From Paraspadella gotoi (taxonomy: Eukaryota > Animalia > Chaetognatha), in contig CM119267.1 in assembly GCA_051294375.1 (NCBI GenBank), forward strand, positions 18,268,992-18,332,991: 64,000 nucleotides of DNA. The letters are read 5' to 3'. A program made the translations under genes and the position numbers. The notes beneath the pieces are model-generated. The model was given only the letters and a program-made list of their open reading frames with translations. It was not told the origin of the DNA and searched no databases. Numbering within the stretch: the stretch's first letter is position 1; each line of letters begins with the position of its first letter. Positions 3,882 to 31,250 of this stretch are shown here, piece by piece.

Positions 3882-6307
3882 TCAGCGCATCCATTCGACA
3901 ACGTCGCACGACATGGGTTCGCAGACGACGAGGACTTGGGCGATTTCGTCGTGTTCGTAGGTTCGTTTGAGGAAAGCGTCAATGAGGCGGAGACCGGAGA
4001 TGGCGTGGAGTCCGGGCACGCGGGGAATCACGTTCAACTCGAGGGGGAGCGAGGATTTGGAGGAGAGTTTGCCGAACTGACGGTTGGAAATTCCCGTCCA
4101 AACCAGAGCCGGGGAAGTTGTGTTTGGGGTGGTCACGGCTGGAAAATTCCAAATGTAAATATTCATTTTCAATTTGAAACTTTTACAAATGAATCGCTGA
4201 ATGTACTATGGTCGTCGGAGGTGGCGGGTGGCGAAGGAGAACCATGTCCGCGGTTCACCCTCTCGTTCTGCAAAGCCATCGTCAAATCCATCGTCCGCTC
4301 TGAGCAATTGGTCACCGTCAGCCGGATTGTGAAAACCACGCCCATGTAGACGAGATCGGGGACGGCGTCGACTGTCACCCGTATGTCTCCGTAGCCTTCC
4401 GAATTTTAATGAAACTCATTAACAAGACTGTGGCAGGCAAAACTAAATCAACATCAACCAACCCGGCGCCATTCTTTGTAGCTGAGACGTTTGCAGCCTT
4501 CCCTTCTCTCCCATGTTCGTTCGCCATACTATATCTAGTTTCCCGATGTTGGTCACACCTCGCAGCATGTTGTCCCGCAACATTGCCTTCAATCAATCAT
4601 TTACCATAATAAAATTTCATTTTTAAATTGGTCTGAAGAATATTCTTTTCCATCCAGGTTATGTACCTTTTTCGGTGTCAGGCAATACAAATACTGCCTC
4701 GTGTCGAGATGGTTCATATTGTTTCTTTTGCCGAAAGTTTTCTCCGCCTTAGAGTCGGCCTCGACCGAATTGAGTTCGACGGCATCGTAGAGGGTCGACG
4801 CCTCCAGCGTCACCTTCTCCATGTGGATGGGCTGCAACGTCGTGTTTTGAATCTGCGTTGCAAACGTCAAGAACGAACTTAGGTTCCAGGACCACAACAA
4901 TCTTAAAACCGCGCATTGCGCGAAAGCCCAACTTGCCTGCGCCTCTAGGTAGACGTCGTCGGAGTCAGCGTTGTAGAATTTCGTCTTGACGTCGAGTGGC
5001 TTGAGGACTTGGAACTTGAAAAACTTTCGAAAGTAGAGGTTCTCACCAGAGGGACTAGAGTAAGAGACGGCGCAGACGAGGATGTGAGTGCCGAGTTCCT
5101 TCACCTGGAAAAAGCGAGAAAAGGGGAATTGGATATTTGAATGATGTATGAACATTGAACAATTTCGTAAATGGAAAGGTACGAGTACTTTTCCTATTCC
5201 TCACCTCGTGATTTATAACGTCGTCGATACTTTTACTGGGCGCCAGCGTTAAAGCGGAGCTGTTGGAGTTTATTCCGTTCAATGTTAAGCGTTGAGAACT
5301 CGTCTGTAACTCCACCTTGACAATGAACATGAAAATGTGAGATCAAAATTTGATATCAAACCATGCGCAGTTACGCACAAATACTTTTTACGGAGCTTAG
5401 CAGGCTTACCTTGACGATCACATTGGAGACTTGTACACTGGAGTCGTTGTGAACGCTTATGTAACTAGAAAATGTTTCGCCTAAAAATATGTTTCCAAAG
5501 TTTTGGGGAAGAACGAGGAGAGATCCGAGAGCCAATGGGACGCCGAGCGGGTTGCTGCCAATGTCCTTTTTCATGAGGTCGAGAAAAGTGTCTCCTAAAG
5601 AAGAATTATAATTAAAAATATATTAAATTTAATGTTAGACTTTGTATTATTTATTTCAATTCGTTGCGTTTGATTTAGGAACGAAATAATAAGAACAAAT
5701 AATAACAACTTAATATACGAGTATATTTTCACAATAAACATGATCATTTACTAATGTAAAATAATAATATTAAACCTTTAAGGTAATAGAATAAAAATTT
5801 ATCAAAGCTTAATCAGAATACGACAATATGCAAATGAGATTGAGGAACTCAATCTCATTTCAGACAATTCACAAATTAATCTGCTACATAATCTCGTTGG
5901 TTCATTTCTGTATTCTCATTTCTTCTGGTATATGCGATGACGTTAAAACAAATACTAACAACCTGATTTGCGCTGATGAAGGCTAGCAATTAGTCGAAAC
6001 TTGGCCGTTTTCACGTAAAAACATCATTTTCGATGTTGTTAACCATTAAAATGTTATTATTTCGTCTCAATTTCATGTTACAAGTAGATTATAGACAGTT
6101 TAAATATTTGCAACACCAATTTAACACATAATGTTATAAGTAAAATTATATAAGTTTTACGTATTAAAATCTTACAAACTTACCTGGTAAATCCTGGGGT
6201 TCAGTAAGAACAGGAATGATCGGAAAGAACGAAGGTCTTGTCAACCGCATGACTTTAAGAACCAAAAGTTGGTCTTTGTCTCTAGCTGGGGCTGATCCGC
6301 TTTCCAT
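3882..6307 (-). CDS. TRAPPC13: Trafficking protein particle complex subunit 13, spliced
   Basis: [96 protein letters not shown]; contains GC-AG intron 4853-4936. Confidence 0.95.
5968..6030 (+). ncRNA. Degenerate minimal type I hammerhead-like motif (Penelope pLTR-type remnant?) in a TRAPPC13 intron
   Basis: CTGATGA-a-GGCTAgcaatTAGTC-GAAAC-ttggcc-GT. Core and stem II are intact; the cleavage-site/stem I junction is non-canonical. Confidence 0.4.
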
Positions 6308-6689
6308 ACTGAAATATTTTTTTGTTTATTAACTTTATTTGTTTGTACGTAATTTGTTCACGAAATCATCTAAAAAAAAATGATAAGAAATAAAAATCAG
6401 ACGTTTATTTGTTTCAATGACTATGGACAAAATTATCAACGTCAAAATATTAATATTAATGCAGATGAACGGAATGTAATTTCAAATTTCCCCCCCCCCT
6501 TCCCCCAAAATCGGTGCAATTCCTGATATAACACGGCTAAAACTACCGAGATGGCTATCACAGCGGTACATTGTGTAATATAATAAAAACAAAATAAAAA
6601 GGCACAAGTAGATTACAATTTTGATTGGAACGACGTAGAGGTAAAGTACGGACTCTTGGAGAAAAACAACATTCTACTCCGGCTTTGAG

Positions 6690-9600
6690 TCAAACCGGAA
6701 GATGAGTCTGAGCGGCGCGGAGTTGATCGATCGATTTGCGCAAGAGGTCGTCCTCGTCATCTCCACCCTCGTCCATTCCCATTTTCATTTCGTCGTCGAT
6801 GGTGAGTTCGTCCACCTGTCGAGTTCACAAAAATCAAACGAATGCGATGGAGAGAAAAGAAAAGAAATGATGGGCCGACCTCAAAGTCGTCCTCGTACGC
6901 TTCGTCGTCTCTGTCTTCAATGTCATCCCCTGCGTTGTCGCCTTCAGTCACCAAAATGTTGTACTCGTCCATCGCGAATCTCTCCCATTCAGTCAACTCC
7001 CTTCCGTCAGGTCCGAGAGACTGAAAGTAGATAAAAAAACCCGTTGTTTGTAATCAAATAAAATTTGTTTTCTCTGAACACAATATCAAGTATAATATTT
7101 TAAACAAGTTATTTAGAATAACACACGTTCTTCAGAGAATTTTTACATTTCACCCTAAAGTCGCACGCACGAAAACTCTGCCACCTCACGATCGAACAAG
7201 ATAAAGCGAGATAAGGAAACTCGACCTTCGAACAAAATGTTCCGAAGAGAAAACCAACCGTGTTCCTCAGTCTCAAAACGAAAATTACGCCGCGATGGAA
7301 ACCTTCCCAAACCGTCATCCGACGAAAGGATTCGCGGTTCAGCGTCAAAATTCGCGCGACCCTGCCGCGGCAAATGAAAATGCGCAGCGATGGAGCGATA
7401 GGACATCTAAATCGCACGAGATTCCGTTGCAGCCCGGGTAAGGAAGACCCGACTATACATACTATACTATATACTATACAACCAAAACGTAACAGACATA
7501 AGCCGTAACGATAAACTTTTCTCAGACCCGACCATCATGCTCACCAACCGGAGCCATCACCAACAGCGTTGCCCTCGTCCCGTGAGGACATTCTTCATTC
7601 CTACGGAGACCGGCCTCATGAGAGATCGACGTTCGGTACTCGCCCGTTGGTCGACCTCACAACCAGAGCTCAGGACGAACGCGCCCAATTTATCTACGAG
7701 GAGAAAAACAAACTGGCACAGGGCGCCTTCTTCAAGGGTTTGGTGATAATTTTTTTATGCTTTTATCTCGCAATTTCAGATTGCTTTCTGTTTCTCTCAG
7801 GCTCAACTCTCCTCAGAGGATCGACAGTGAGTAACGTGTTCCGCTTCGCCACTCTCCGCGGTGGCGATCGCGGCGTCGACGACAAAATCGGAGTCGAGGA
7901 TCCCAACGAGTCGCGCGACGTTTGCCTCGTCGTCGCCGTGGTCGTATTCGCCGTCGCGGTCGTCGCGCTCCTCGCCGTCGTCGCCGTGGGCGTCGTCGTC
8001 GGAGTTTTGAAACAGAATGAGTTGGCGACGACGACAGAGTCGACGATGAGAGAGTTGGTGACGGAGGTGAGAGCGTTGAGACGACGGGCAGAGAGTCGAC
8101 GGGACGACGACTGGATCGCCAAATCGAAATTCGGACGAGAGGAGAAACTGGAGGAGACGATGGCGAGATTGTCGGAAGCCGTTGAGAGTTTGGAGAGTTC
8201 CATGAAAAGCGAAAAGGCGGAGAGAATCGAAACGGAAGGGAGAGCGAGTAAAAAGGTGGCAATGAGGAAAAAAGGAAGGAGGCAAAGATCGGCCACGATA
8301 ATGGAAGAAGAGTCAATAGAGGAAGAGGAGACAACAGATGAAGTTGAAGATGAAGCTATCTCTAGGGGAGATATAACGATTGATGAGACCGTGGCTGAAC
8401 AAGAGACGACTGAAGAGACCACGGCTGAACAGAAGACAGACAGAATGGAAACGAAGACGACAAAAGAAAATTTTGCAAACATAACCTTTAACTTTACCCA
8501 ATTCGAAAGCGAGTTCTTCCCTCAAATTTTGGAATATCTTCACGACATTAACGAGACTCTCGGAGAATGGAGGCAACAAAAAAAGAACAAGTATCGAAGG
8601 GTATTTGTCTCCAAAATCAACGAAAATTTTACAACTCCCATACAAAAATGTAACGCTTCGAAAACTACTAACAATATATACAGATCGTCAAGTCGAAAAA
8701 TACATAAAATTCGATTGCCGACGATAATCACACATGCGAGGTATTATTGTGAAGACTTTTATCCGCTTTTGAATGACGACTCGGCTCTGGCATTTTTCAA
8801 AGATCCGCTTGACAACTCCATAGCATGCTACGTCGCTGCCAACAAACTACCTTACGGGATTACACATTCTGAGGCGAAAAATTTTTGTTACAAATTTGGC
8901 GGGTTTTTAATCCAAGTTCAGTGGACGGAAAAAGCTAATTTTTTGAGAGACCTGCTCAGGTTATATTTTAGTTACAAAATATAATGATATTAACGGTTAA
9001 ATTCAAAACGAATTCACATGTAGGTTCGCTTCCGTAAATAACGGTTACTGGCTTGGCATGACGAAGAGAAACGACTGGATGTGGACGAATTCCTCGACGC
9101 GACTCAACTACTCCAACTGGAACACGAATTACGCCGCGAACCCCAACCACCTTTGCGCATCTGTATCGATTAACAAAACTGACGAAACGACCGGATGGCG
9201 CACAAGTGACTGCGCCGCGCTCAGACGACCGATTTGCCAATTTGAAAGATACGGATACTCGAACAGATATCCCATAATCAACAAGGTCAACCGTGCGGAT
9301 TTTTACGAATCCCAAGTCAATTGCGAGTCGTCAAATTCGAAATGTTTCCGCTTCTTTAGAACTCAGCGTAGTTTTTCCACGGCTGAGCGAATCTGTCGTC
9401 AGCGCAGATTGATTTTGGCTAAACGAACCGATTTGAGCAACACGATCCTCCTTTCTATCTTGAAATCTATTCCAATTCTTAGCCTTGAACATTTCGATAG
9501 ATTGGTAAGTTCAGGGGTGACGGTGTTTTTAAAAAACGCCACCAAAGAGAAACTTTCCGCTTAATTCAGGAGCCTTGGTGGCTAGGACCAGGGACAAGCG

Positions 9601-12600
9601 AATCCGACCATTCGTCCCCGTCTGCATCAAGAACAACGTGCGAGGCGGCACATTTTGTCAGGGACGCTACGCCCTCAGAAGGTGAAGAAGAGAGAGAAAC
9701 TAATCTGAGCGGACTCAGGATTCGCGTTCAAGAGGAAAACTGCGAAAAGCAAATGTGGTTTCTGTGCACGAAAGAGTTGAATAAATGAAAAAAAAAAGAA
9801 GAAAAACTGAAAATTGATTAAAATTATCATAAGATTTTAATGGATAATACGTTTATAATGATCATTAATTATCAATAAATTAATCAAACCTTTTGCGCAG
9901 CTACAGCGAAAGGGTCCCTTTGTTCATGCTCCAAATACTTTTCCAAGTCGAAAAAAGTGTCGAAAAAGATATGAACGAGATGGATTTTTGCCTTGAGATC
10001 GGAGAGGGTGATAAAGTTGTCGTCCCTCGGGTGAATAAGATCCAGCATTTGACAGAGAAGATCCTCGAAGGGCAACGGTTCGATGCACATCGACTCCAGT
10101 CTGTTACAAAATAAAACACGAAATTAAATTTCATTATTTTTGGTGTTTTCTGATCCGTTTTTTGTTCACCTCCGAAGCTGTTCCTCGTAAAAGTACTCTA
10201 GTTCGTACATCGAGAGGCACCCGTCGCCGTCGAGGTCCATGCAACGGAACCAATACTCGATCGCCTTGTTGCTCCTTTTATCCTCCGAGGAGAGGAGAAA
10301 CCAAATGAATTCCTATATACGACGACGCAGAATTAAAAACAAGATAAACTTTCGAATTAAAATTTCATAATAAAGGCCGACCTGGTAAGTCATGACTCCC
10401 GTCTTGGAAGGATTGGAGCGGTTTACGGCGGCGGAGAACACCCGGTCTATCATTCGATCAGAGATGGCGTGGTCGTTGTAGCCGGCCAGCTCGGCCTTGC
10501 TGATCTTGAGGTCGTGATCACGATCAAGCTCCCAAAATTTGCAGTAGATGACGTAAAAGTGTTCGTAGGAAAAAAAATCGGTGACGAGGTTGATGTCGTC
10601 CGAGTCTTCAAGGCGGCGAACGGCGTCGAGGAGGGAGGCTCTGAAGTCAGTGATTAATGTTGGGGAGATAAATGAGTTGACAAGAGCCAAAATCCCCGCA
10701 TCCCCCGCCACAGAGGCCTCAATCGCGATAACTGACCTTTTATGGACTTTGAGATCGTGCCGCAATTCTTGCAGCGTAACGCGTCCGGACCAAGAAGAGT
10801 TTACCGAATAAAATATCCGCGAAATGACTGTCGCCACATACCTATGTAAGAGCGGGGCTGTTTATGAATTGGATATTGTTATTACTTCTTCATATTATTG
10901 AATCTACAGTGATGGCGCTCGCTCCGCCTTTCTAATTTCCTTAATATTCATTAACAGAGCTAAATAACTAAAAACAAATAGAAACAATTTATCTGTAATA
11001 ATATAATTATTATTTACATAAGACAATGCTTCAACACTTGATACATTGAGCTCGAACTTCAAAAATCTCTCTAACATTAGAGTGCATCCCTTAATACAAG
11101 CTGACCATTAATTTCGCCTTTGAATTAATAATGAACTATTTTTGAGTTATGAAAAGGTCAGCCAAATTAGAGTTAAACTCGCAATCATCAATGTGATAAT
11201 TATTCTATCAAAATATCACAAAATCATCTATGAATCAAACTACTAAACAATATAGAAAAGCATAATAAAATTCAAAATTTGTGGTTCCANNNNNNNNNNA
11301 AAAAGCCGGGAGACTAAGCGCAAAGGCGCAAACAGAAGAAGTGATTCTGTCTCGTGTCGGCGTACTGAGGTAGCGTACGGGAGGGGGTAGAGAAGGCGGG
11401 GAAGAGGAGGTTTCCTCTTCGTTTTTCTCTCGGGAGATGTCGCGTTTGCAGAGCAGATGCTCACTTTGTTGGTGGGGAAGAACTACATGATAGAATTATA
11501 CGTCAGAGATGATACGAACTTTCGATCAAAGATTTCCATAAAAAAAAAAACAAAAAAACGAACGGTCCTTCTAATATATTGCACCGCAATGACTTTCTTT
11601 TTAAGTGTATTTTTGAATGATCACATGACTACATAATTAGGAAAAATATGTGTAACAAACGTCCAAAGGTAGATGACGAGACGACATCTCACCTAGGAAT
11701 GAAACCGGGCGTATCGTGAAGGAACTGGAGACCAGGATGAGATTCGACGACATCTTGCGCCAAAAAGGCGAAGTCCTCCTCTGTCAAATAATCGCGAGAG
11801 GACTTCATGAAAAAGGATGAGTCGCCAGATCCGCCAACGTCGTCGCCCTTTAAGTTGACGGGGGGAAGAAAGGGCGTATCAAAGATAAGTGAAAATAGAT
11901 TGAAAAGATTACATGGAGAATTGGAGATAATACAATAAATACCTGCAGCAAGAACAAAAACTGAGCCGCCTCGTCGTCGACCCCGCAATGATCCCACAAA
12001 CGGTTCCAAGTCGTCGTCAAACTACCCAAAGTCACAAAGGGGTTGCGATATCCACCGCAGGCTCGGAAAAGCCCCGATTTCCAGTAGAGCGGAAGTTGAA
12101 GGCACTTGGTGATCTCGCCTAATTTTGTGTTAAAAAGAAAAAAGATAAGAGAAGATCCCACAAAGGATCCGTAAGCCACCTTTTTATCACCGAAATGCTG
12201 CCGATTCGCCACTCGATTTTCCAGGGTCTTGAAAATCTCAGCGGCTTTGGTCAACAAGCTCCGCTTCTGCTGCAGCTGCGGCCCCGACGTCGGTTCTCCG
12301 CGAGGGAAATAGAACCGGGGCACCTTGGGTGCGAGACGGTTGACGTTGTTGTTGTTGTTTTCTCGCTTCGGCGTGAAGTCTCCGCCGGCAGAGGGCGTGA
12401 CTTCCGAGTCCAGCCTCAAATCGGCGATGGTGACATCGGCGGGGGGAGGAGCGGCGACTTTAGAGGATTTGGCAGTCGACTTTTTCGTCGGTTTCTTAGT
12501 TAAGGTCTGAGATTCTTCGACGACGACGACAACCTCGGGCACATCGTTGACATCTTCATCGAAGAGAGTTCGAGGTTCGAGCGTGGACGGCAATTTGGCG

Positions 12601-13537
12601 ACGATATCGTCGGGAGAGGGTGACTTGGACTTGGAGCCGCCCCGAGTAATCACGGGTTGTAGAACTTTCTTCTCCAAACTGACCTAAAAAAATTTGAAGG
12701 GAAAAAAAAATCTTCTAAAGGTTCCCCTTGCAGAATCCCTGGAAAGCGTTTCCATCTCGCTCACCTCGGTTTCAGGCTGGGGTGTCCCGTATACTGTTTC
12801 GAAGCTGAGATGTTCCTTCTCCTCCTCAAAACTGAGAGAAGCCAACTTGGGTCGCCTTTCGGAGACGAAATTCTCACGAGGCGACAAGGGCAACTTTTGA
12901 GCGGCATCGTCTGGAAGAAAAAGGAAAAGATTTTCTTTTCTTGTTGGCTGAAAAAAAAAACAGAGATCGAATCAGCAATGAACGACCTAGCTTAGGTGTG
13001 GACGTCTTGATGTTCTCATCCAAGAGGGTCTTCACTCGCGACTTTTTTCTCTTCCGTGCATGAAAATTTCTTCTAGGGCTACAAAAAATAAACATTTACT
13101 TACATATATAAAATTAATATTAAAATAGATAAATTCACTTTAAGTTAAAATATAAAAAAACCTAGTGGAGGGCGACGACGCCGGGGAACAAGGCGGCGGC
13201 GTCGCCGGCCGCGAATTCGGCGTCGGAGAAGTGGATTCGCCGAAATCGCGGAAAATGAAATCTTCGTCGAGCCCGGGACGAGAGAGAGGAACGATAGAGA
13301 GCGGATCGATGCCTGAAATAAAAGCAAAAGCAAAATAATAGAAATAAAAAGCTTCGCTGAAGATAGATATATATATATATATACTTAAAACGCACCCTGC
13401 AAAATGAGTTTTTTATCCAGCAGCAATTGAGCCTCGTTCAGTGGATCGGTGAGAAACTGGAAATAGAGCTCCTGAACTTTGGCATTGACATTGGGAATCA
13501 AGGATCCAGCGGTCGACGACCGCATCTCCATGGCCAT
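6690..13537 (-). CDS. PPP2R3: PP2A regulatory subunit B'' (PR70/PR72 family), spliced
   Basis: N-terminal [78 protein letters not shown]. Penultimate exon 7020-6880 ELTEWERFAMDEYNILV joins via phase-0 intron 7021-9889. Confidence 0.93.
7295..9788 (+). CDS. Type II transmembrane protein with coiled-coil/acidic stalk and two C-type lectin-like domains, nested antisense in a PPP2R3 intron
   Basis: Spliceable exons ~7295-7437, 7526-7737, 7801-8959, 9024-9504 and 9570-9788. TM segment VCLVVAVVVFAVAVVALLAVVAVGVVVGVL; CTLD motifs CYVAA..EAKNFC..YWLGM..WMWTN..YSNW..C..W..DC..ICQ; second degenerate CTLD (CFRFF..AERIC..WWLG..FLC). Confidence 0.8.
11290..11299. other. Assembly gap (10 N) inside a PPP2R3 intron
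   Basis: Run of N; flanking exons join in frame (FIPR|YVATVISRIFY), which supports correct scaffolding. Confidence 0.95.
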
Positions 13538-14199
13538 CCCCTCTTTTCTTTTTTTTCGTTGCTCGTTAAAATATTTTCAAAGTTTTCTTTCTCGACATAA
13601 AAGACATCGACACCGTAACTTTTGGACTTCGATGATCTCCCTCTGCCAGAGAACGGGAAAATGTTAATAAATCACTGGACAATTTATAAAAAAAGCTGAA
13701 CGGCAGCGTCCTAATTTCAATTGAAGAAAATAAAGGTTAGCTAAGGGGGGAGTAATGAGTAAACTCGATTTAATCAAAATAAAGCTAAGAGAAAACCCTG
13801 AACAATTCGTGGGTGAAAAATATGTGAAAACAACAATCGTATCACAGATCAGGAGGAACGTCGGGAGGCGCGGACCGGCTCGGAGCAAGGGCAATGGCTT
13901 CAATTCAAAATGCAAACGAGATTCTCGTGAATGAGGTAGTTCGCGACGAGAGAGCGGGCGGACAAAACAATAATTTCGCAGCGTACGAAAAGAAATTATG
14001 AAAAAGAGAAATTCGCAGCAAGTTTTGAATGAAAATGGGATGAAAAAAAAGGACGGCTCAAATTTTAAAATAACCTTTCCATGGACCCCGCATGACTAGC
14101 TTTTCACTCCTATCCCAATTTACCATTCGGGTAGCACGCATTCAGTCGGGTCCGACCATCCGAGCACCGCCCGCTCTCAATTAAAAACATGTTAAAGGT

Positions 14200-17100
14200 T
14201 CACTCTTCCGGCTGACGCCTCCAGTTGGCGAATCCCTCGTCGACCATCAGGCGCGATATGTCGAGGAGACGCTCCAGACCCCGCCCCCCAAACGAAGTGA
14301 ATATCTGTATTTGAAAGGGTTGGCCGGCGACCCGCTTGATGGCGTCGTCCAGAGAACCGGCGATGGCGCCATCGCCCCAAGGCCCGACTGGGGGAAAGTC
14401 GGGTCCGGCGCCGGCGCCGCCCCCTTGGTGGTCGACAAGAAGGGCGCGTCTCTTGGCCGCCAATGCTTGACCGACTTTGGTCAAGAAGCCACGACCGACG
14501 ACTCGTATCTTGACGGGACGACGCTGGCCAGCCATGCAGAGAGACTCGAAGTAATCCACGGCCAACTTGGACCAAACGCGTCGATCCTTGGCTTCTGGAA
14601 TATAAACATTGAATTATTTTTTTTAGATCATTGCATACGCATGATTTACATCTCAAAAAATCATTAATATTGTCCCACACGTTTCATACCATCGAAAGGA
14701 GGCATTATGTCCGGAAGAAAGCACTCGACGGCCAATGGTGGCGGGCGTAGAAAGCGCTCGTCCAACGGCAAAACCTCGTCAAGCGGCAGTTCAGCCACGA
14801 CGCCAAAGTCCAAGTATAACACTTCGACGACGAAAGAACGGGAATCGGTTGAAGAAGGGGAAGGATTTAGGCTGCGAATCTGTGCGCGGTACCACTTCCC
14901 GCGTAAGGCATTGTAAGGAGCTGGGGCGGCCACCTTAACATGTAAAGATTGTTTGATGGATAAATGTACATTCATTCTCCCAATCCATTCTCCTTTCTTC
15001 TTACCAATATTCCCTTAGCGAAGACTTGCTTGCTGGGGTTAAAATCCCCGGCTCGCCGTGACCCATAAAAATCGTCCATTCGGGCGATGAGCCGAGCCAA
15101 AGCCGGATCGAGTCGGCGCAGCTGAATCCACACGACGTTGGCGCGGGTGGCGTCGACAGCAGCGACGAAGGCCTCGAGGAAACTCTGCTCGGCGGCGTCG
15201 GGAGAGACGGGGACTTCAACGTCATCGAGGAACCGAAATCCGCGCCTGTCGACAGAGAATGGACAATAAAAGGGGGCACATTCCTTTCGATTTTCGTTTT
15301 GCCACTTTAAATACAGATGTACAGATGTAGTGTAATATATTGTCGAATTTCTATACTAGAAAAATTAGGGTCGAAACAAATAGCGGAGATAAAGGTTGGA
15401 AGTTCTCTCACCTACTCAACGCAATGCCCTCCAGCATGACTGAAATGGGATCTTCGGTTTCCCAGAACGGCGGTTTTTCTATCTCAACCGTTCCCTCAGA
15501 TTCCGTGGAGCTTGTCGTCGTCTGACATCCCTTGGTTTCCAGAGTCTTAGACGTTTCCATGGTAAGCAAATTCTGCTCTGTCGCTCCGGTCGCGGGAGAT
15601 TCGTGCAACGATCGAAGGTCAACGAAGAGAAGGTCATTCCCGAAAAGTTTGGATTCGCACACCTCGTCCTGGATCGAGTTGGTGGCCACGACCGTTCCGT
15701 TTTCATCGTTATCGTCCAAGCTCTTGATTCCGCTGTCATTGGCTGCGGCTGAAGTGGAGAGGGCGTCGGCGGTCGCGCCGGGGATTTCGGGGTCGAGGGC
15801 TGAGAGGAGGCTTTCGTCGCTCCCGTCCTCGATCGAATCCGTTTCCATGGCCTCGTTTCGTCGTCGCTCCGCCTCCTTTCTCCTCGCTTCCTCCGCGAGG
15901 CGTCCTCGTCGCTCCTTCCGTCGCATTTCGTTTCGCTTGAGGTCGTCGGAGATGATGAAGTCCCCGCATTTGATCTTCTTGTCCATGAAGGTTATGAGGC
16001 TCTCGTCGTCGACGAAGTCTTCAACGGCTTCGTCCGCATCGTTGTCGTCGTCGTTTTCAATTTCGTCCTGAATAGTGGGACGGAAATCTTTAATTCCTTT
16101 ATGGAATATTGATTCTATATCGGTCCGCGGATCGATATGAGAATCATAAACTACCACCTCAACCTTTTCTTTTGTGGTCACGAGCGGTGTCTAAAAATTT
16201 TCAAGATGAACTTTGCACATTGCCTAAACTCATTAAATTAACTCCAATTAAAAAATCTTAAAAGTATAGTGATCTCGCCAGACGTTACTATCAAAGAAAA
16301 TTAATAAAAAATTTTGAAAAAAATGAATGATTGATGTGATAACAAATTATTGATATAATAATAATTGATTGATGTAATAGTAATTGATTGATTGATATAA
16401 TAATAATTGATTGATTGATGTAATAGTAACTGATTGATTGATATAATAATAATTGATATAATAATAATAATATTAATACGATTATAATTAAATGATTGAT
16501 GCGATGATAACCAAATGATTGATACGATGATAACCAAAAATTGATGCGATGATAACCAAAAATTAATGCAATGATAACCAAATGATGGATGCGATTATAA
16601 CCATATGATGTATATAATGATTCATTGATGCAATGATAATTATTCATTGATACGATGATAGTCATTCATTAATTCGATGATAGTCATTCATTGACATGAG
16701 TCATTTATCGTAAATAAAATAACATAATGTATATAAGCGAGAGAATAAAAGAAAAAAAAATAGAGAGAAGCTGGACAGCCGCTGGATCTCGCCTAATTCG
16801 GTCATTCGCCCGTCTGGCGAGATAAAAAATATATAAATCTAGCAATATATTCCAAATCTTACCGGGGAGGATATCGTGTGGTCCGTGCCTCCGTCGCTGT
16901 TCATCCGGTCAGTATTGATTCTAAGCGGACCCGGGCTTCCTGAGGCAACGGTGGCGGCAGCGGCGCCTTCTGTCTCGCTGACGCCGAGTCTCGAGCCGTC
17001 ACTTCGTTGGAACGAGCTCTGAAACGAGATAAGACAAATGTGAACCCTCGCTCTTAATTATTCACCTTTTCTCCGCTGGACTTCTAACCTCGACAAGAGC

Positions 17101-20100
17101 CAACGTTGCTCTCAGCGCCTCCGGCAAAGCGAGGTACATTTGATTTGTGGCAGCTTGAGTCCCTTTGAGACCCAACGACTCGAGGCTTTTGAGCGAAGCC
17201 AGCGAATCGGGCAATCGAGGGAGGTCGTTGCCGTCCAACCAGAGATGGCGCAATCGGGCGAGGTCGCCGAAAGCGGAGGGTAGCGCGAGGATACGGTTAT
17301 GGGACAGGTCGCACGTTTCAAGACGGGAAAGTCGACAGAAAGAGTCAGGGAGAGAGGAAAGTTGGTTGTAGGCTGAAAAGAAATAGAATGACTTTATAAA
17401 TCGACAATGGGGCGAAAATCGTTGCGACGCAAAGTCTCACATAAGTCGATGTTCTCCAGTAACAACAACTTCTCGATCTCCTCGGGAAGCTCCTTGATGG
17501 AGTTTCCGCTGAAGTTGAGGTAGCGCAGCTTTTGCATGTGACCGATCGACTTGGGGACTTCCTCGATGCGATTGACGAGAGGCGTCGAAAGTCGTTCGCC
17601 AGAAGCGACGCCGTCCATCGAAAGAACGCTGCTCTGACGACTGCGGCGACGCCGATCGTCGTGACGAGACAATCCGGCGTCCAGGTGGTCCAACTCAGTG
17701 AAGAATCCGATAGCCGTCGGTAGAGCTGGAAAGCGAAATATCATTATGTTAAAAGGCAAAATCGTCTTGATTCAAGAGCAGAGATTTCGAATTCCGACCT
17801 CCGACGCAGTTTCCTGACAGATCGAGCAGGTGAAGACGACGTTGAAAAAAGCAAAACTCGTCTTGGAAGGGGACGCCGTAAAGTTCGTTGTCGGCCAAAT
17901 TCAAAACGCGAAGTTTCGAGCTGGAGATCCAATTTGGCAAGGAGTCAATCTTGTTACCGTGCAGCAAGAGGCTGGAACAAGGATGAACCATGATTAAGAC
18001 ACCGCTTGAAGACCCGAAGCGTCTTAGGCAACTAAACTTCGTTTCCTCTTCCGGTTTAACCAAAGATACACGCTCGAAAGCGAATAACAATATATTATGT
18101 AGACACGAACATCTTAAAATATCAACAACCAAATGACTCTTTAATATTGATAGGCTACTAGATTTTTTATAATAATAAGCGAGAAATTCACTCTTTACGT
18201 TTTTTCACTAACCTGTTCATTTTATTCCAATTTAAAAGGACAGTTTAATTAATAATTATATCATATAATATAAGAAAACAAAAATTAATTAAAAACTACG
18301 TCTAACGAAATGGTAAAATCATTAAAAAATTTAAAAATTGTTCTTACCTTGCAAAAAAAAAAAATTATTAGCTAGTCGACCGAATACGTTAATCCAATAT
18401 AATAAAAAAAAACTAAGACACGAAAATGAACGATTTCTCAACTCCATAAACCCAAAGAAAATGTAAACCTGGATCCTAAACAGATATCACGACTTCAGCT
18501 ACAACTTTTTTTTTCTACCTCTCCAAGATGTGGGCCGATTTGCACGGATCCCAAAGATTTTGAATTCTGTTGTGTGAGAGATCCACGTGGATGAGATGAG
18601 CGAGTGATGAGAGATCGATGTTTGCGATCAGGTTGTTGCCCAGCTTCAATGTCTCTAGCATCGTTAGAGTCGAAACGATGACGCTGCTCAATTGATTTCC
18701 GCTGGCTTCCAACGTCTGGAAATGGGGTAAATGAGTTTTTCACTTCTGACGTTTTCAAAAAACTTGAAGAAAAAAAATTCAGTCGTCGCCTTCTCACTTT
18801 GACGGTTCCGGGCAAGGCGGGCAAGGACATGAGCAAATTGTCATTAGCCTCGAAATGCGTCAATGACTTTGCCGAGTGGAGGTCTTCGATTTCGGCCAGC
18901 CTATTACTGTTGACGTTAAGGCGTTGAAGGCAAGGCAGCTGGCACAACTCTTTGGGCAGCTGGCAGAAAGTATATAAAATTACAGTAGTAAGAATCGTTA
19001 ACAAAAATAATCAACTCTTTGTATACCTTCGAAATTTGGTTGTCATTTAAATTGAGGATCCTGAGTTTCGACAGCGACGCCAAAGACGACGGAAGGCGTT
19101 CCATCTGATTGTTGGCGGCGTTGAGCTCTTCAAGACACGGCATGTGTTCGGCCAACGCGTCCGGAAATTCATACAACGAATTGTGAGAAATATTGAGGCT
19201 TTTGATGTTCTTGGCTGAGGGAGCAAGAAAATATCTTCGTAATCAAAAACATTTTAGAAGCAATAAATTGTCGAAATCCAACCTCCCGGCGCCAAGAGGA
19301 TGTTGGGGGGAACGCTGCAAAGATTTCTCTTCTCTAAGTGGACGTGTTCTAGCAGGACCCCACCGTTCGCGCCGTCGTCCTCGATGGGGCCGGCGATTCC
19401 TTCGTTTTGCGACTCCTGCACTTGCATCTTGATTTTCTTGCATTCGAGTCGGTGCCCGAGTCGAGCGTCTTTTTTGTTGCAACGTTTTGAGCAGTAATTT
19501 CTGAAGGGAAAATGAAAAAAAAATCCTATAAGATTCTTGAAAAAAAAATTTCAACTTTCTTCAACCGACCTGAGCTTGCACACGGTACAGGGTTTGAGTT
19601 CCCCTGGGCTGCCGCACACGTTGCAGAGGGCGATAGGAGCGCTGTTGCGCAGCGACCCCGTCAAATTCTCGTTTATTTTCTTCAAATTAAAGTTAAAAGG
19701 ATCGAGAGGACGACCTAAGTGTTTGGAGACCGACAGGAAAGAAGCGCGATCCGCGGGGTCCATTTTTCTAAGCAAAAAATAAATATATATATATATATAA
19801 ATATTACTATTATATACTATTATTTTTTCATTTATTTTTAATTTTTTTTTTTTTTTCATTAATAACTTTCTAACTAAAATGATGTGATAGCTATTAGAAA
19901 ACTAGAACAGATAGTAATCTAACCTTGTGTTGTATAGATGCTCCCTCTATTTCCAGAAGACAACACAGACTTCCCTTTCCCAAATTGAATTATTAGATAA
20001 ATAAAACATTTTAAAAAAGAAAGCAATATATATTTGATTAAATAATATAGATTAAATACTAAATCCTTCATAAAATATAAAAATAGAAAATAGTGAAGCA

Positions 20101-23100
20101 AGTAATTTGCAAATTTTCATGCTATTATATATATACAGTCCTGTGCAAAAAAAAGGACATGTAAAAACATTATAAAAATAAATCAAATTAGATTCTTTTA
20201 AAATGAAAAATATTATAAATGAATAATATTTATGAAAAAAACTATTGGTATAAATTTGGTTAATACGTGGCTATCCATTACGAAGCAGTGATTTTTTAAA
20301 AATAACTGCTAGATTATAACTCTTTTAAATACTAAAACAAAATATCAGAACAAAAAAAAAATTAAATTATTTTTAAACTCTTATGTTTAAAATGTTATAG
20401 CTCTGGAATGACTGGTCCAATTTTTTTAAAAATTACATATTTTGGGTTCTTTTTTCAAAAATCTATTTCCCATTCATATTTTTTAAAAAAATAAATACAA
20501 TGCCCATAAATTAAAGCTAAAAAAATATTTTCGGTTTTTGGCATATTTTTAAAAATGTTTTTTGTAATGACTAAAATGATAAAACATTTTTACCACTCGT
20601 CTTTCGGGAGCTATAACTCTTGAATGCTTGGACCAATTTTTTTAAAACTGAAATATAGATTTTTTACTTTAAAATCTATATTTATAATTTATAATTTTTT
20701 ATAATGTATATAAAACGAGTACTACTTAAGTTTGAAGAGTGTCCTTTTTTTTGCACAGGACTGTAAGTGCAAATTAGGCCGCAAAAAAGTACCTGTATAA
20801 CTCGTTGGTGAGACGGGAATCTTTGGAGGTTTCGTTTCCACTGAGATGACGTAGGAGCGTCCTTTGATACCTGAAGTGTCAAAATGGGGCCATAGCTCGC
20901 TTCGATCAAATTTAATTCAATCGGACCATCTTATTAAAAACTAACCACAAATTGCCCGCCACAAAGTCGAATCCTTCATAACGTGGCAGCATCTGTGCCG
21001 AGAGAAGTGGCGGCGCTGCGCGGGCGCCGTCGAGGACGACGATGGGGGAACGTCCAGCTGGAGGCGTCGTACGATCCAGTGTGAGAGTGAAGCGCCACTG
21101 CCCGCTGGCGAATACGAGCGCCGCGCCGGGACGGCGAAGCAGTTGGCCGACGAGCACAAACCGGTCGTCGATCATCCGTTTGCCAAAAACCTCGGAAATC
21201 GTTTGGGTCTGAGTCTGGGTGGAGTTCTGAAGATTCGAGAAAAGTGAGGAAAATCACAAATTAGAACCTATTAGTAATAATATTAGAACTAATTCGAAAA
21301 CAATAATCACCCCCACAGTTGGCCTATAAGCGCTGGAAAATACGGCACCGTCCGAGTCGTCTACGAAATGGTATGAACCTTGACGAAGATCCCACTCGCT
21401 CTTTGTACCGGAATTGTCTGCGAAGGATTTGTAATAGTTTTAGATCTCATAACAAATCTTATGAAAGTTGCAAAATTATTTGTTTCACTATCTTTACATC
21501 TTTTTTTTCATTTTATTTATTTTGTTTTTTTATTTAAAATAACTATTATTTATGATTTTATTTACTTGTTAAAATATTTTTGTATAAAATAGTTAAATAT
21601 AATATTATCTGTTAGGGATGGGGGATGGGGTTGTTAGTGTTGTCTTCTGGAAATAGAGGGAACATCTACAGTGTTGATTCTACACAACACAAGGTTAGAT
21701 TACTTTCTGTTCCCGTTTTCTAATAGATATCGTACTTATTGGAAAATCATTAATGAGATTATCATATACTAGACGCCTTGCAGATCTTTTCTTTACCGGG
21801 TTTGGAGTACCACCCGATGATCGCGGGTATCACGTGCATTCCAAGGAAGGAAAGACTGACGTGAGGGGAGCAGCGAAAGCGTCGCCAAACGGCGGGTCGA
21901 GAGTCGTCTAATTTTAAGGTGATGATCTGAATTCGATAAAAATTCATTAAATGCGATGGTTTTTCTGTCGCCTACAAAAACTACAACAAAAAAGACCAAC
22001 CAAATCTTCGGTGAATTGGTGTCGCTTGCACTGATTCAAAAAGTCAATTTTGGCGTCGAGCACTTTGACGATGAAACTCTCCTCGATGTTATCAGCGTCG
22101 ACCTGTTTGCTGCGGACGTAACCCGTGACGGGAAAGTAGGGGAGACCCCAGAGATACCATTCCTTTCGACGAAGCGGTGGGACGCCGGGGCTGCGGTAAA
22201 GATGTTTCATTTTTAAGCAAACAATTTCTTCATCAAGTCCTTTCCCAGAAAAAAAACGCCAACTCACCCGCCGCCACGGTGAGTCATCAACGTTTTCTTC
22301 GGCTTGAAACTCTTCATGCTCTCGAACAGCGTTGGATGATAGAAACTGCTGTCGTGCGGCCGCGTCGCCTTTACCGCGGGAGAGTGCATAAAAAGGCGAG
22401 CACGAGTCTGGGGGTCGTAGTAAACGCCGTGATCCACGAACTCCTCCGGGTCCCAACAGTCTTCTTCCGGCGGATAACGACGTCCCAACTCTCTGTGCGA
22501 GGATAAAATGTAACCATTGAGGGAACGGGGTACGCGAAAGCCCGAATTTTTTTGCTACTCACCTGAAAATATCCAAGCTTATGAGAAGCGCTTCGTTCCA
22601 CAACTCTTTGGAAGCCTCGCATAAAGTCACTCCGCCGTCAACGACAACCTCTATCCATTCGGCCCAGTAGACCTTGTGCTCGTCTATAGTGAAATAATCC
22701 ATACATTTCTAAAAACAATAAATAGATGACTGGCGTTAATCAAAGCGGGGGTGGGACTGAGAATACGAATTTGAGAAGGAGGTTAGTATACCTTATCATA
22801 CACAAATCTGTCAGCCAAACAAAGAAAAACGCCAGGGTGTAGGATGAGGGAGAAGGGACCGGTTTGGGTCAAGGTTCCAATAGAAATTTCGACCCTCACG
22901 ACTTTGTTTATGTCCAGCTTTAAGACGGCATCCCGCATCAGGGTCTCCTTCTGTCGATGGGGAACGGAAAGATTTATAACAGGCGATTTTTTTTTGGGTC
23001 GCTCATCCGCGCGGCCATCCGATGTACAGAGGATCTCACCTGCCAGACACTCATCAGTTTGGCGAGCATTTGATCCAAATGATCCGAACGGAACGCTAGC

Positions 23101-23438
23101 CCATGGGAGAATATATCCTCGCAGGCCCATACTTGCTTCATGTAACCTAAGGTTGGTTTACGAACATATGTAAAAATGTGGCAACAAAGAAAGGAACTTC
23201 TTATGTGAGGTCGATAAAAATCACACTGACCCAAAGAGTCACGCTGCAGCTTTATGAAGTATAGGAGAGTTTCTATGGTGTAATGTTCCAAATTTCGAAG
23301 TTTAGGTCGATTCTGGGAGACCCCGGAATCGAGCGCTTAAAAAGGAAGAGCGATAACGTTTATAAAAGATTAGAAAGATTGGTCTTACTCCCCCCTCTCT
23401 CTCCCACTCCTATAAATACCGTCATCTCGCTTCGCCAT
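14200..23438 (-). CDS. Multidomain protein: pRiA4b-ORF3/MM3350-like domain + MYND zinc finger + leucine-rich repeats + extended Tudor domain
   Basis: Phase-consistent GT-AG exon chain. IITLKLDDSRPAVWRRFRCSPHVSLSFLGMHVIPAIIGW..YHFVDDSDGAVF..GQWRFTLTL..VVLDGARAAPP..LDPFNFNLKKINENL; then CNVC..CTVC..YCSKRC..HRLEC; then many LxxLxLxxNxL repeats; then KWYRAQI..VLYLDFG..AVECFL..WSKLAVDYF. Confidence 0.75.
16322..16700. repeat. Intronic AT-rich minisatellite (~21-bp TGATTGATGCGATGATAACCA-like units and TGAT/ATA repeats)
   Basis: Degenerate tandem repeats are directly visible. Confidence 0.8.
19886..21731. repeat. Pair of ~80-95 bp inverted repeats (19886-19966 and 21637-21731) in introns flanking three exons
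   Basis: gtgttgtcttctggaaatagaggg..caacacaaggttagattact..ttttctaatag is the reverse complement of 19886-19966 apart from a short insertion and a few substitutions. Confidence 0.8.
20136..20763. mobile_element. Tc1/mariner-type MITE (~630 bp)
   Basis: Perfect TIR CAGTCCTGTGCAAAAAAAAGGAC at both ends, flanked by TA on both sides; non-coding AT-rich interior with internal direct repeats. Confidence 0.88.
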
Positions 23439-23961
23439 GATGGCATAGCCGCCTCGGCCCACCGTCGGAGAGAATCGAGAGGAGTCGACGCCCCCGTGAC
23501 GACTTCACTTGTTGTTCGATTCAAATTAATCTTATAAAATTGAAAACGTAAATTCTATATTGTTAATTAAATAATAATTTAATAATTTCACTTGAAAAAG
23601 AACGGAAAGGAACCATGAACTGGCTCCAAAAGCGATACCTAAACACGTTTCAATTCAACACGAACAAAATAGACAAAATTTTCGACTAGAAGTAGAAGTA
23701 TGAATATTTGGCACTAGGTCTGTCCTTTTCCATTGCCAAAAATGAATAAAAGACAGAACCTGTTCACTGTTCAGTGTTCACAGCACCGAATATTCGATGT
23801 CAATTCTCCGTAAGAAAAAGCGCACTCGATTAATTATAAGAAGGAAACGTTCAATAATTTAAAAAAATTAGGAAATAAAATAACGTTAGGCCAATTTAGC
23901 GTAATTTTGCGCAATAAAGTCTTTAATCCGTCGCCGCAAAACTAGGACCGCTTTCAGTTCC

Positions 23962-25045
23962 TCAATCGGGCGCAACAAATTCTGCCGCCGGCCACAATCG
24001 TTTCTTGACGATGTAGACGACAGTCGCGTAGAAAAAGACAAGGGCGAGAAAGATTAGGAGGTGGTCGGTGAGTTGGCGTCGTTCGAACTTGGTCAAAAGT
24101 TTTTTGGAGGCATTGATGTGAGCGTCCACGCTCTTCACCTCCTCTTGCGACTCTTGCAGCGTCTTTGAACTGGAGATGAGGTTTTCTACGGCGGCGCTTG
24201 AGTGCTCCACCTATAGAGATAGAAGCAGAAAAACTAAAAACTAACGGTCTAGTAAAATAAAAAAATTCGCGGAGGATAAGCTGTATGAAAACAAGCACGT
24301 TCAGTCGTGCGCAACGTAAAAAAGCACTTTATATAAATTTATCAAGTTTAAAATCTTAATCTCCCACGCCGAGGCGGGAAGGCGATGCGTTTGGTCATCC
24401 TATAACACCATCGAGTCACCTGCACCGTGAGTTTCCGGCTGAGTTCCATCATGCTATCGGTGACGTCTGACACCGAGTTGACGAGCCTCTCCTTATCGAC
24501 GGTTTTTTTCTTGGAACCATCCCCGGCGCTGCGGTGACGAGGCCCGTCGTCGGAGGCCGTGCCGGGGGAGATTAGTCCTCCACGATCCAAGTGTTCGATG
24601 CGAAGTTGGCATTGGAGGTTAGCGCGGCGCAGGCTGGATATGGTTCCCTGCGGATTGGCAATAGATACAATAAGACCGATCATTTTCATTCATTTTTCTA
24701 TCACCTACTTCCAACTGACTCCGTTGCGAATCCACCTCTCGCAAAATTTCCTTCTTGTCGTCTTCCCTGTCTCTCTCTGCGATCGATAAAACGAAAAACT
24801 CGAGTTGGAATCGATTTAATCTTAAAGGGGCGCATGGACGCCATCGATTCACCTTTGGCGAACGTTTCCAACTCTTCCAACGTCCTTTTAATTTCCTGAA
24901 TGTTTTTTCTCGCGTCCGTGTTGATGAGCTGCAGCGAGGAGAGCGGCCCCTCGCAGGCGTTGATGTCCTGGATGGACGCTTTGACACTGAGTTCGAGGCG
25001 AACTACCTCCTCTAACGATTTGGTCACGAACGCCAACGTCGCCAT
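23962..25045 (-). CDS. BNIP1: Vesicle transport protein SEC20/BNIP1, spliced
   Basis: VRLELSVKASIQDI, LRRANLQCQ, VTDSMMELSR, SKKLLTKFERRQLTDHLLIFLALVFFYATVVYIVKKR (SNARE motif plus C-terminal TM). Confidence 0.92.
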
Positions 25046-26093
25046 CTTTAATCTCGCGATGTCGCGTCTTTACTTTATATGAATTTTTTTGTTCTAACTG
25101 CGCCTGTCGGGTTTAATCAAAATGGCCTCGAAGAGAAAATTACAGCTTCCCACTGCAAAATAAAGAACGATAAAAATTCACTGGATATAGCAACAACGCT
25201 TAGTTTCAAAATGAGACCGAGGCAAACTAAAATGGAGAGTGAGAGTAAGAGCGCAGAAAAAATATATTTTATAACACTGTTTGGTAACTACCGTAAACTA
25301 CAAAGAAAATTACTAAAAAAATAGTAAAACGCGAATTCAAAAGATTGTTCGGATATTTTTATTGATAAAAGATATGACTGTAAAATTGAACCATTTCCTG
25401 ACAAAGCGAGAACCAAAAGTTCAATACATTAACAAATATTTGTTAACATCGTCCCAAAGATTGTAATTAAAAGAGATTCACGGAATGCTGTTTTAGCGGA
25501 CAGCCTAGGTATATTAATACATTTTTAAGTCACAATAAATCTCAGTAAAACATTCATAAACTTCATTAATTTTAATTAAAATCATGCGAAGACAAGCGCA
25601 ATGCATCCACTGAGCTGGAGCAATATTCATTAAATCAACTCTCTCTTCAAATACAGAATTTCTTAAATCGGTTAAATCCAGTTTTAATAGTTACCATGCT
25701 AAGTAAAGATATCCTCTTCCAGAATAGTCGCCACTGTTTCTCAGCGCAATCATGCATTAACTTCGCTTCCAACTACTTTTTTAATGAACATCCCACGAAG
25801 ACAAAAAAAATATCTTTATCTGGAAAAATTCATCACTTTAAAGCATGTCTAAAGATTCCCTTAAAATATATCCTGAAATAATCAAGGTCTAGCTTAACTG
25901 CAAGTGTAAGTGTAAGGCGTTTACTTTTCAATAAAGCTACGACCAGATCACAAATCAATTAAGGCTTAAGCATAACACCACGTTGACAAGGTGTAAAGGA
26001 TCATAACTCACAACATCAACTTAACAATAACTATACATTTTGCTGAATTTATTATATAAAATCGTATAACTCAAGGTCACTTCAACTTAACCA

Positions 26094-29000: not shown

Positions 29001-31250
29001 TTTCGCTCAAATAATCGCTGGGTCCAATTGTTCAATTTATCGTCGGTCGGTCTTACTTAGATTTTAATCGCTCATAATTCGGGTATTCAGTCGGTTGAGC
29101 ACGGGACTCTTAATCCCGGGGTCGTGGGTTCGAGCCCCACATTGGGCGCCACTCTATCTGGATGGGTGGTATCTCGGGGCTAACTAACGGAGTCGTAAAG
29201 AAGAAGGCAAAAATGAGGGAGAATATATGTACTATTGAAAAGGCAAAAAAAGACATCAAAAAAGAAATGGAGGGAAAAATCGGAGGAGTAGAGAGGTAGA
29301 GAGAGGAGAGAAATAGAAGTCGAAGGAGAAGTGAGAACTGGGTGAGCCTCGAGCCCTGGGTGCTGGGAGGAGGAAGAATGCGTGGCTGACGAGACACGAG
29401 ACTCGCGCTCGGGCTGGTTTGGTCGTTGGCGTCATTTAATACTTAGGAGAAATATTATGATATGGGTGGAAGGGGTAAGACTCGTATAAAACCTTCCAAT
29501 GTATAAATCGTAACAAGTGAAAAATATACGCTGTTGGTTAAAAAACAAGTTTGAGCAAACAATGTCGGATCTGCCCACGATCTTTAGCGGTAATTAATTA
29601 AATATTTAATTAATTCAGGTTAATTAATTAATTAAGCAATTATTAATTAATTTGATCCAAAATATTTGTTTTTAGGACTTTATACACTAACCACGACAAA
29701 AGCAATGACGACGACGACAATAATTCCGATAACGATTGACTTGATTGATTGATTAATTAATAGATAAATTGATAGATTAATTAATAAATAGATAAATAAA
29801 TTTATTGATTGAATAATTGATTAATTGACTCATTAATTATTGATTAATTAATTGACTAATTGATTAATTAACTGATTATTTGATTAATTAATACATCTTG
29901 CATTTACATTTAATATAAAAAGAAAAAAGCATAATCAATTAAAGAAATAGGTTTTTTTCCATTTAAACTCATTTCCACAAAAACGATTCTATAGAAACTT
30001 AATTTCTAGCTTAATCACACACTTTCCTACCCACATACAAAATTTCAAGTAAATCGCCTCATTCACTAATTAATAATTGGCGTTCAAATAGTGAAAAAAA
30101 TTTTTTTTATTTTTTCCATTTAAACTCATTTCCACTTGGACGATTCCATCAAAACTTCATATCCAGCTCAATCACACAGTTTCCTACCAACACACAAAAT
30201 TTCACTCCAATCCAACCATCCAATTACGAGTAATTGGAGTTTTTTGCTAAGGTGGGACGGACAGACGGACATTATTTTGGCATAATTTATCATAATTCGA
30301 GGTTCTGATATGATTTAAGTGAATGCCCGACAAGATTTGGGGGGGGAGACCGACAAAGTGAATTATAGAATCGGAATCTGCTGATAAGCAGATCCGCCTA
30401 AAAAAATTCAATAAATGTAGGACAAACTCTCGTTGTAATTCGTTACTCTTGATTTCCTTTTGTTAAAGTGTTTAAAAATACAAAAAATCAATATTTGTTT
30501 ACAAACGTTACCCTTCATTATTACTTCATTGTTCTGTTTAATTAATATTTAATTTCATACAGATTGTATTTGTATTGATTAGCCATCGTCATCGTCGTTT
30601 CTAAAGTTTGAAAGGAATCCTGACTCAATACTTCTTACTCAGAGTCCACAATTTAGCCCAAAACATATTTCGTAACAAACAAACCTGCAAGACCGATAAA
30701 GTGCTCGCTGCCAATGTTTGAAGCGAATAAGGAGGCGCCGACAGGAAGCCACCACATGAATCGTCCCGCCAAAAAGTAACTGTTGTCAATAAAATTCGTA
30801 TTAATTTAATAGTCAAAACATTATGATAAACAAAAGGGAACCAAAAGATTGACGTTCGATTTTTGCTATTTCTTCCAAAATATCGCAAAGACAAAAAGCT
30901 GTCCGGCATTTAACATAATCTCTAAGCATTATTGGTGACAAGAACTCCTACTGCCAAATAGAGAAGTTCGATCAACGAAAAATCGACCCCAATCTAACAC
31001 AATTTGTTTGAGGCGTGACGTCACCAAAAAATAAACTCCCGCCTCCCCGTCTACTCTCCGCTCACCCACTGACGGTTCCTCGATTTCTCCGAAATAAAGC
31101 AGCGAAGCCTGCGCTCAGAACGAGGATGAAATAAAACGTGATTGCGACGTAGTCCCATGTTTCGAGCGCGCCTCGGTCAGTCAGTCTTTCTTTGGCATCC
31201 ATCGCGATTTTGGCAGAACCAAAACTTTTTTGTATTGTAGATTCTTTCAT
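26094..31250 (-). CDS. SLC5A3: Sodium/solute symporter, SMIT1 (sodium/myo-inositol cotransporter)-like, spliced
   Basis: [86 protein letters not shown]. Family is certain; exact ortholog less so. Confidence 0.8.
28633..28795. repeat. Intronic 22-bp minisatellite (ATAAACTTCATAAATATTTTCA, ~7.5 copies)
   Basis: Head-to-tail units without spacers. Confidence 0.92.
29077..29151 (+). pseudogene. tRNA-Lys(CTT)-derived retrocopy with encoded 3' CCA and degenerate 5' acceptor strand
   Basis: TCAGTCGGTTGAGCA CGGGA-CT-CTT-AA-TCCCG GGGTCGTGGGTTCGAGCCCCACATTGGGCG CCA; the 5' GCCCGGCTAGC is eroded. Confidence 0.75.
29541..30406 (+). mobile_element. Non-autonomous Helentron-like element (HINE/DINE-1 type), copy 1
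   Basis: Sub-terminal CGGATCTGC (29566) is inverted to GCAGATCCG in the terminal hairpin CGGAATCTGCTGATAAGCAGATCCG. Also internal GACG/GACA microsatellite (30255-30270), internal direct repeats, A-run flanks and a homolog at 54084-55420. Confidence 0.6.

Follow-up and report, generated by a model that had tools for sequence, protein, structure and literature searches.

A spliced chaetognath gene joining a degenerate PF07929/MM3350-like domain to MYND, leucine-rich repeat and extended Tudor domains

Introduction

Do the scattered open reading frames lying at positions 14200 to 23438 of a 64,000-nucleotide stretch of Paraspadella gotoi (Chaetognatha; GenBank assembly GCA_051294375.1, contig CM119267.1, positions 18,268,992 to 18,332,991; the whole stretch is hereafter called the window) belong to a single gene, and if so, what kind of protein does it encode and from which parts was it made? 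A sequence-only reading of this locus had proposed that fragments looking unrelated to one another form one spliced gene, in which a domain like that of the plasmid pRiA4b ORF-3 family (PF07929/MM3350), possibly acquired horizontally, is grafted together with leucine-rich repeats (LRRs) onto the MYND and extended Tudor (eTudor) scaffold of TDRD1. Our results confirm that the fused gene is real and is a single spliced animal gene, and lead to another view of its origin.

Results

Gene structure and transcript evidence

A single open frame of 24 exons, encoding 1647 amino acids, runs on the minus strand from an ATG at 23438 to a stop codon at 14200, the very start and stop that had been predicted. 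The model is built from the splice joints of RNA contigs and, at one intron, from contig record positions, and it is consistent with the open frame and the intron ends. Exons 1-7 (23438-23420, 23335-23231, 23146-23040, 22950-22792, 22708-22563, 22492-22268 and 22190-22001), exons 13-18 (19500-19283, 19214-19027, 18959-18798, 18715-18519, 17971-17799 and 17725-17441) and exons 19-24 (17372-17089, 17018-16863, 16067-15412, 15245-15005, 14933-14690 and 14594-14200) are delimited by contig joints, and exons 8-12 (21926-21797, 21417-21311, 21226-20946, 20870-20793 and 19767-19570) by contig joints together with record positions. All 23 introns have GT-AG ends and keep one frame, as had been anticipated.

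The transcript source is one public run, whose RNA type is guessed from its record and in which 0.52 of the words match, the contig being without introns; two other listed runs contain next to nothing of the stretch. This evidence consists of contigs of flat depth from one library, and contigs cannot show transcript starts or short leaders. A single 8953-nt contig (depth 352.9) is identical to the exons over the aligned pieces listed, and lacks the introns. Joints of the gene are found in two alignments of contigs (10 among 15 of the 60 rows of one, 12 among 13 rows of the other), 22 introns being seen as such joints. The remaining one, 20793/19767, whose joint row was dropped at a TA repeat, is fixed by the record coordinates: contig positions 5976-6173 correspond to 19570-19767 and 6250-6532 to 20944-21226, the 76 letters between them are exactly 20793-20868, and the summed exon length agrees (3389 versus 3390, with a one-base shift of the cut). 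This intron 11 (19768..20792, minus strand) is, by contig alignment and sequence, the longest of the gene (1025 nt, 22% GC), and its interior is nearly uncovered, with depths of 0.2-2.7 in the bins 20163-20639. An in-frame ATG lies 5 nt past its acceptor and is a possible start of a short isoform.

Because the same contig continues unspliced across both intergenic gaps into the Sec20 gene and the PP2A-B'' gene, on its own it does not represent a single transcript, but its splice joints require reads that cross them. The exons named in the sequence-only reading are all present, in the same frame, and the contig joins them, including in frame across 20793/19767. Most of their boundaries were right; three have to be moved according to the contig, from 21971 to 21926, from 21317 to 21311 and from 16190 to 16067, and seven further coding exons lie upstream of 21926. 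The acceptors 21971 and 16190 and the donor 21317 are not used by the contig, in which 16863/16067 takes the place of the expected 16863/16190 junction; use of acceptor 16190 would leave the reading frame intact and might occur in a minor form, but is not seen among the contig rows shown. A transcript ending at 19767, where two separate genes would part, was not found among 6 of the 7 loose contig ends, none of which was dropped at the repeat.

AT-rich tandem repeats (16322-16694, periods 19-46), covered by many contigs at high depth, are a dispersed repeat in intron 20. One extra G is present in the RNA contig at 14041, in non-coding sequence downstream of the stop codon.

The PF07929/MM3350-like domain

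The PF07929/MM3350-like domain occupies residues 317-553, encoded by exons 8-12 (19656..21926, minus strand) and interrupted by four introns, and is recognised from Pfam and profile matches. Pfam finds PF07929, as expected, in exon 8 (E=8e-4, 19.6 bits, profile positions 5-42) and in exon 10 (E=0.22, 11.6 bits, profile positions 66-129), but neither score singly passes the 26.6-bit gathering cut-off; the exons were scanned one at a time, and a rough sum of the two scores would exceed it. When the spliced region is compared with a profile of 120 prokaryotic domains, it reaches 28.7 bits (best of 300 shuffles, 2.2) in three collinear pieces (residues 319-357, 416-469 and 528-553), and 21.1 bits (shuffles, 2.9) with a profile of 35 viral-contig domains. 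The third piece lies beyond 20793/19767, the junction that the domain had been proposed to span; it is collinear, but taken alone it is non-significant (0.0 and -1.9 bits with the two profiles). The match spans the whole profile of the family of MM3350 from Methanosarcina mazei (PDB 2I1S), from which the present domain differs by its four introns and by being embedded in a 1647-residue animal protein. A search with exon 8 retrieves plasmid genes annotated as pRiA4b ORF-3 in 5 of 16 records, with weak E-values. The NCBIfam scan gave no match, and neither exon 8 alone nor exon 24 alone has a meaningful match in the PDB.

Conservation at the level of 80% or more among the 120 domains is found in 52 columns, of which 25 are kept, mostly scaffold positions (P-x-x-WRR, GW, G-R-A-x-PP and DP-x-x-F), and 27 are lost. 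The losses include the polar residues of HLH-x-F, YDFGD, W-x-H and PPED/CPPED, the YDF being gone by deletion, and the PPED-x-GG motif is lost as well. The spacing between WRR and GW is 21 here; of the 108 domains, out of 120, in which it is measurable, 94 have a spacing of 20 and 14 one of 19. Both the resemblance to PF07929 and the decay of its motifs, as first read, are therefore borne out by the profile scores and the lost columns, and the domain is, as judged from its sequence, a degenerate relative of PF07929 and not a typical member. Any metal or catalytic site that the lost residues form in prokaryotes would be gone here.

Identity to the 120 prokaryotic domains is 18-30%, when the minimum among 40 of those is 30% and the median 47%. 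The phylogeny that had been suggested did not help to place the domain, which sits on a branch of length 3.3 with support 0.0. Its GC content at third codon positions (GC3) is 0.60, like that of the remainder of the gene.

To the fold of the family, a modelled bacterial relative gives access: the model is ubiquitin-like, and its best match outside the family is a chain of SNAPc, PDB 7XUR chain B, which would be the central ubiquitin-like domain of SNAP50/SNAPC3 (11% identity to the modelled relative, no sequence match). By extension from this model, the domain of the chaetognath protein may have a ubiquitin-like fold. Two giant-virus proteins, BFVD A0A3G5ACM7 and A0A3G4ZQD0 (Hyperionvirus and Barrevirus), also match the MM3350 model, with E-values of 1e-4 and 3e-4 and 13-14% identity; they could be either PF07929-like or SNAP50-like.

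The region in front of the domain (residues 1-316, exons 1-7, 22001..23438, minus strand) was characterised by composition and family scans. With 39% hydrophobic residues it is probably folded, as far as composition can tell; no Pfam family is matched in 6 exon frames, and exon 7 has 0 matches at E<=0.001 among 1.84 billion protein representatives. A second, eroded PF07929 copy had been suspected upstream of 22000, and none of three approaches supports it: the full profile scores -2.0 bits there, a sub-profile of the first 60 columns finds no match, and self-similarity reaches a best E of 1.1.

MYND finger, leucine-rich repeats, linker and Tudor domain

The MYND finger (residues 564-602, 19440..19625, minus strand) is split by intron 12. 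It matches zf-MYND (PF01753) in Pfam with E=0.002 and has 8 of 8 zinc ligands in C4-C2HC spacing (C564, C567, C576, C579, C585, C589, H598 and C602). It begins 10 residues past the last MM3350 helix, both being in exon 12, and its end shares exon 13 with the first LRR.

The LRR array, of intracellular type (residues ~630-1065, 17146..19358, minus strand), is delimited by the repeat consensus and by Pfam LRR families, which are matched in 6 exon frames. It comprises about 15-18 repeats in all, 15 of them with the consensus (residues 658-1030) and the others degenerate, and is interrupted by an insert near 905-945. Its nearest solved structures are Leptospira LIC proteins, LRRD1 and SHOC2. With the intracellular LRR proteins SHOC2 and LRRD1, which are top PDB matches, it has in common repeats of ~23 residues, but the likeness is a generic one of repeats, and Pfam scans found no death domain here. 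The array is followed by an acidic low-complexity linker (residues 1085-1354, 15412..17018, minus strand; 23% Asp/Glu, one short charged helix, no Pfam match), which on its composition is likely disordered.

A single eTudor domain ends the protein (residues ~1375-1640, 14224..15187, minus strand), as defined by Pfam, PDB match and flank alignment. TUDOR (PF00567) is matched with E=1.9e-9 (38 bits versus a cut-off of 23), so that both Pfam matches that had been proposed for this part of the protein, zf-MYND and TUDOR, were found. The N- and C-terminal flanks of the domain align with the two eTudor domains of a neighbouring gene (40.9 bits versus 1.9 for the best shuffle), and a Gly-rich insert lies in the last exon. 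Among solved structures, Papi/TDRKH (PDB 5VQG, 5J39) is the best match of the Tudor exon (30.3 bits, E=4.9e-6), TDRD1 reaching 25.1 bits; Papi/TDRKH likewise has a single eTudor, but no KH domains were found here by Pfam scans. By alignment, the aromatic cage comprises Y1450, Y1475 and F1478, and probably Y1442, whose register is made uncertain by an insertion.

TDRD1 has an N-terminal MYND finger followed by four Tudor domains (PMC9002060). In TDRD1, Vreteno, Kotsubu (CG9925) and CG9684, as here, a MYND finger lies upstream of extended Tudor with an aromatic cage. The present protein differs from this group by its one eTudor (versus four in TDRD1/Kotsubu and two to three in Vreteno), by the LRR array and acidic linker between MYND and eTudor, by the MM3350 domain and unknown domain in front, by the replaced cage Asn, and by a MYND finger that is not N-terminal (564-602 of 1647). 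The proposed TDRD1 scaffold is not supported, as the single eTudor lies ~770 residues from the MYND finger, which adjoins the MM3350 domain in the same exon. Membership of the TDRD1/Vreteno/Kotsubu group requires several tandem Tudor domains and one is present, so that by its domain content the protein is not a member.

Searches for related architectures

Homologs were searched with single-exon queries, which makes these searches weak. Exon 10 gave 0 of 516 candidates among longer proteins and 0 of 597 stretches in metagenome contigs, and the Tudor exon 0 of 156 candidates. A profile search retrieved 575 long PF07929 proteins, the best 120 of which are without MYND, LRR or Tudor family; no MYND pattern was found in these 120, nor in six-frame translations of 86 loci. 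Fungi have proteins that combine MM3350 and MYND, and none of them was retrieved here. In the literature, no eukaryotic fusion of PF07929/pRiA4b was found among the papers listed, as judged by titles or abstract starts, and no paper was found that mentions a protein with both LRR and Tudor. The statement that no protein of this architecture has been described stands in this sense: all the parts are known, and the combination was found neither in print nor in the collections searched, which is weak evidence of novelty.

The window around the gene

The window is part of a compact animal genome with short, AT-rich introns and GC-rich exons, and the families of neighbouring genes include Sec20, PP2A-B'' EF-hand, sodium:solute symporter, ANAPC5 and ZZ-finger. 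From ~10300 to 25100 (minus strand), one spliced contig covers Sec20, the fused gene and the PP2A-B''-like gene, with unspliced gaps of 523 and ~670 nt, both of which carry a hexamer resembling a poly(A) signal as well as unpaired sites that look like acceptors. This run-through may reflect a trans-spliced operon, overlapping untranslated regions or merging of contigs, between which contigs cannot tell.

An intronless frame of 861 residues (33037-35622, minus strand), 9.6 kb from the fused gene, encodes two eTudor domains (TUDOR E=4e-30) with a CCCH-type finger between them and a coiled-coil-like N-terminal part, a layout presumably reminiscent of Krimper. Two eTudor genes are thus near neighbours, with 27-29% identity between their eTudor domains; the exact sequence of the second protein has no match in the protein collection. 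On the plus strand, a tRNA-like element (29085-29140) with an Rfam score of 29.6 bits (model positions 10-63 of 71) just reaches the cut-off, has no ARAGORN call, and is either a truncated tRNA or a tRNA-derived repeat. Also on the plus strand, a long frame (7515-9564) has coiled-coil and acidic stretches and then, by eye, C-type-lectin-like exons; Pfam found no match in 9001-9561.

Discussion

What could such a protein do? Our preferred reading, which is tentative, is that it is a non-enzymatic adaptor whose eTudor domain is predicted to hold the methyl-arginine tails of PIWI- or Sm-type proteins in RNA granules. We read it as an adaptor because its modules are all of kinds that bind, and the sole candidate enzyme site is eroded. 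In RNA granules, the eTudor domain would dock on clients carrying methyl-arginine, in the way described for Vreteno and Krimper (PMC10711660), the acidic linker could give reach, and the LRR array, together with the MYND finger and the probably inactive, ubiquitin-like MM3350 domain, might recruit partners. A function in germ granules, the binding itself, the location in the cell and the order of events are deduced from the parts of the protein and their arrangement. As for the origin, the likeliest and simplest history is the fusion of an older eukaryotic MM3350-MYND gene with a gene for LRRs, linker and Tudor domain, the seam lying within exon 13. Because the MYND finger abuts the MM3350 domain, we consider recent transfer of this domain onto TDRD1 less likely than the combination of such an older MM3350-MYND module with an LRR-Tudor gene.

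Several observations weigh against this reading. The conserved Asn of the cage is replaced by Val1480; loss of the hydrogen bond of N768 severely weakens binding in SND1, and SMN and SPF30 do not use the Asn (PMC3281842). The MYND finger is without the Gln and Trp between C589 and H598 that, in DEAF-1/ETO (DEAF-1 Q529/W533), bind Pro-rich ligands (PMC3555993). LRR and MYND proteins, such as the nearest structures LRRD1 and SHOC2 for the LRRs, are also found in cilia and signalling. No eukaryotic homolog was retrieved with exons 7 and 10 and the Tudor exon in protein and metagenome collections, the fold was modelled on a bacterial relative and not on this protein, and the transcripts come as contigs of one library, whose run record names no tissue.

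The same observations have to be weighed in other ways. The protein could be a signalling or ciliary LRR scaffold, with the Tudor domain only a module for protein contacts. The LRR structures just named and the lost cage Asn agree with this, and, judging by the titles of PMC2991246 and PMC2991253, MYND proteins act in cilia, but the LRR matches are generic and four cage aromatics are retained, so that we give this possibility a small chance. A TDRD1/Vreteno-type gene that lost Tudor repeats and gained the LRR array in between and the MM3350 domain in front is also rather improbable: the order of MYND before eTudor is that of TDRD1, which is among the best PDB matches of the Tudor exon, and additional N-terminal domains are exemplified by Vreteno, but the eTudor is single and distant, Papi/TDRKH outscores TDRD1, and the MYND finger lies next to the MM3350 domain in one exon. 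Alternatively, there might be two working genes, one made of exons 1-11 and the other, for MYND-LRR-Tudor, starting at the ATG that follows 19767, accompanied by a read-through chimera; this would account for the run-through into both neighbours, which shows that the region is merged or co-transcribed, for the length of intron 11 and the ATG next to its acceptor, and for the fact that contigs leave starts and short leaders out of sight. In the main contig, however, splicing at this junction keeps the frame, the intron is nearly empty, none of the 6 loose ends listed lies at 19767, and a split would remove the last MM3350 helix (of weak score), which makes two genes very unlikely.

The MM3350 domain itself can be seen differently. 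It could stem from a lineage-specific transfer from a prokaryote, a mobile element or a giant virus, followed by intron gain. In favour of this are the absence of MYND, LRR or Tudor families from the best 120 long PF07929 proteins, the carriage of PF07929 on plasmids, transposons and viral contigs, the two giant-virus proteins that match the fold, and the bacterial content of 7 of 7 listed Atlas clusters, for which the query was a bacterial protein. These searches were however seeded with prokaryotic sequences, and the low identity, the long unsupported branch, the four introns and the lack of a compositional offset speak for little likelihood. A recent horizontal acquisition, as first suggested, is neither shown nor needed. 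With the SNAPc match in mind, the domain might instead be a nucleic-acid binder, in the manner of SNAP50 with its central ubiquitin-like domain, and act in small-RNA gene transcription or sensing, an idea which is rather doubtful. A broader version, unlikely but deserving somewhat more weight, is a new class of Tudor scaffold, in which a module carried in prokaryotes by transposons, plasmids and viruses would have been domesticated and linked, by way of the MYND finger and LRRs acting as a sensor, to a Tudor domain that reads PIWI; the fold of this module may be shared with the core of SNAP50, a factor of snRNA promoters. If true, this would tie PF07929 to animal nucleic-acid defence and would be a hint that the SNAP50 core came from prokaryotes.

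Whichever of these applies, our preferred adaptor reading included, PF07929 is widespread and of unknown function, and Tudor scaffolds pick up different partner domains in different lineages. The closeness to SNAPc and to ubiquitin-like folds, though near background, is a first structural handle on the MM3350 fold, and a transcribed, in-frame fusion provides a domain-fusion clue to PF07929 that is directly testable.
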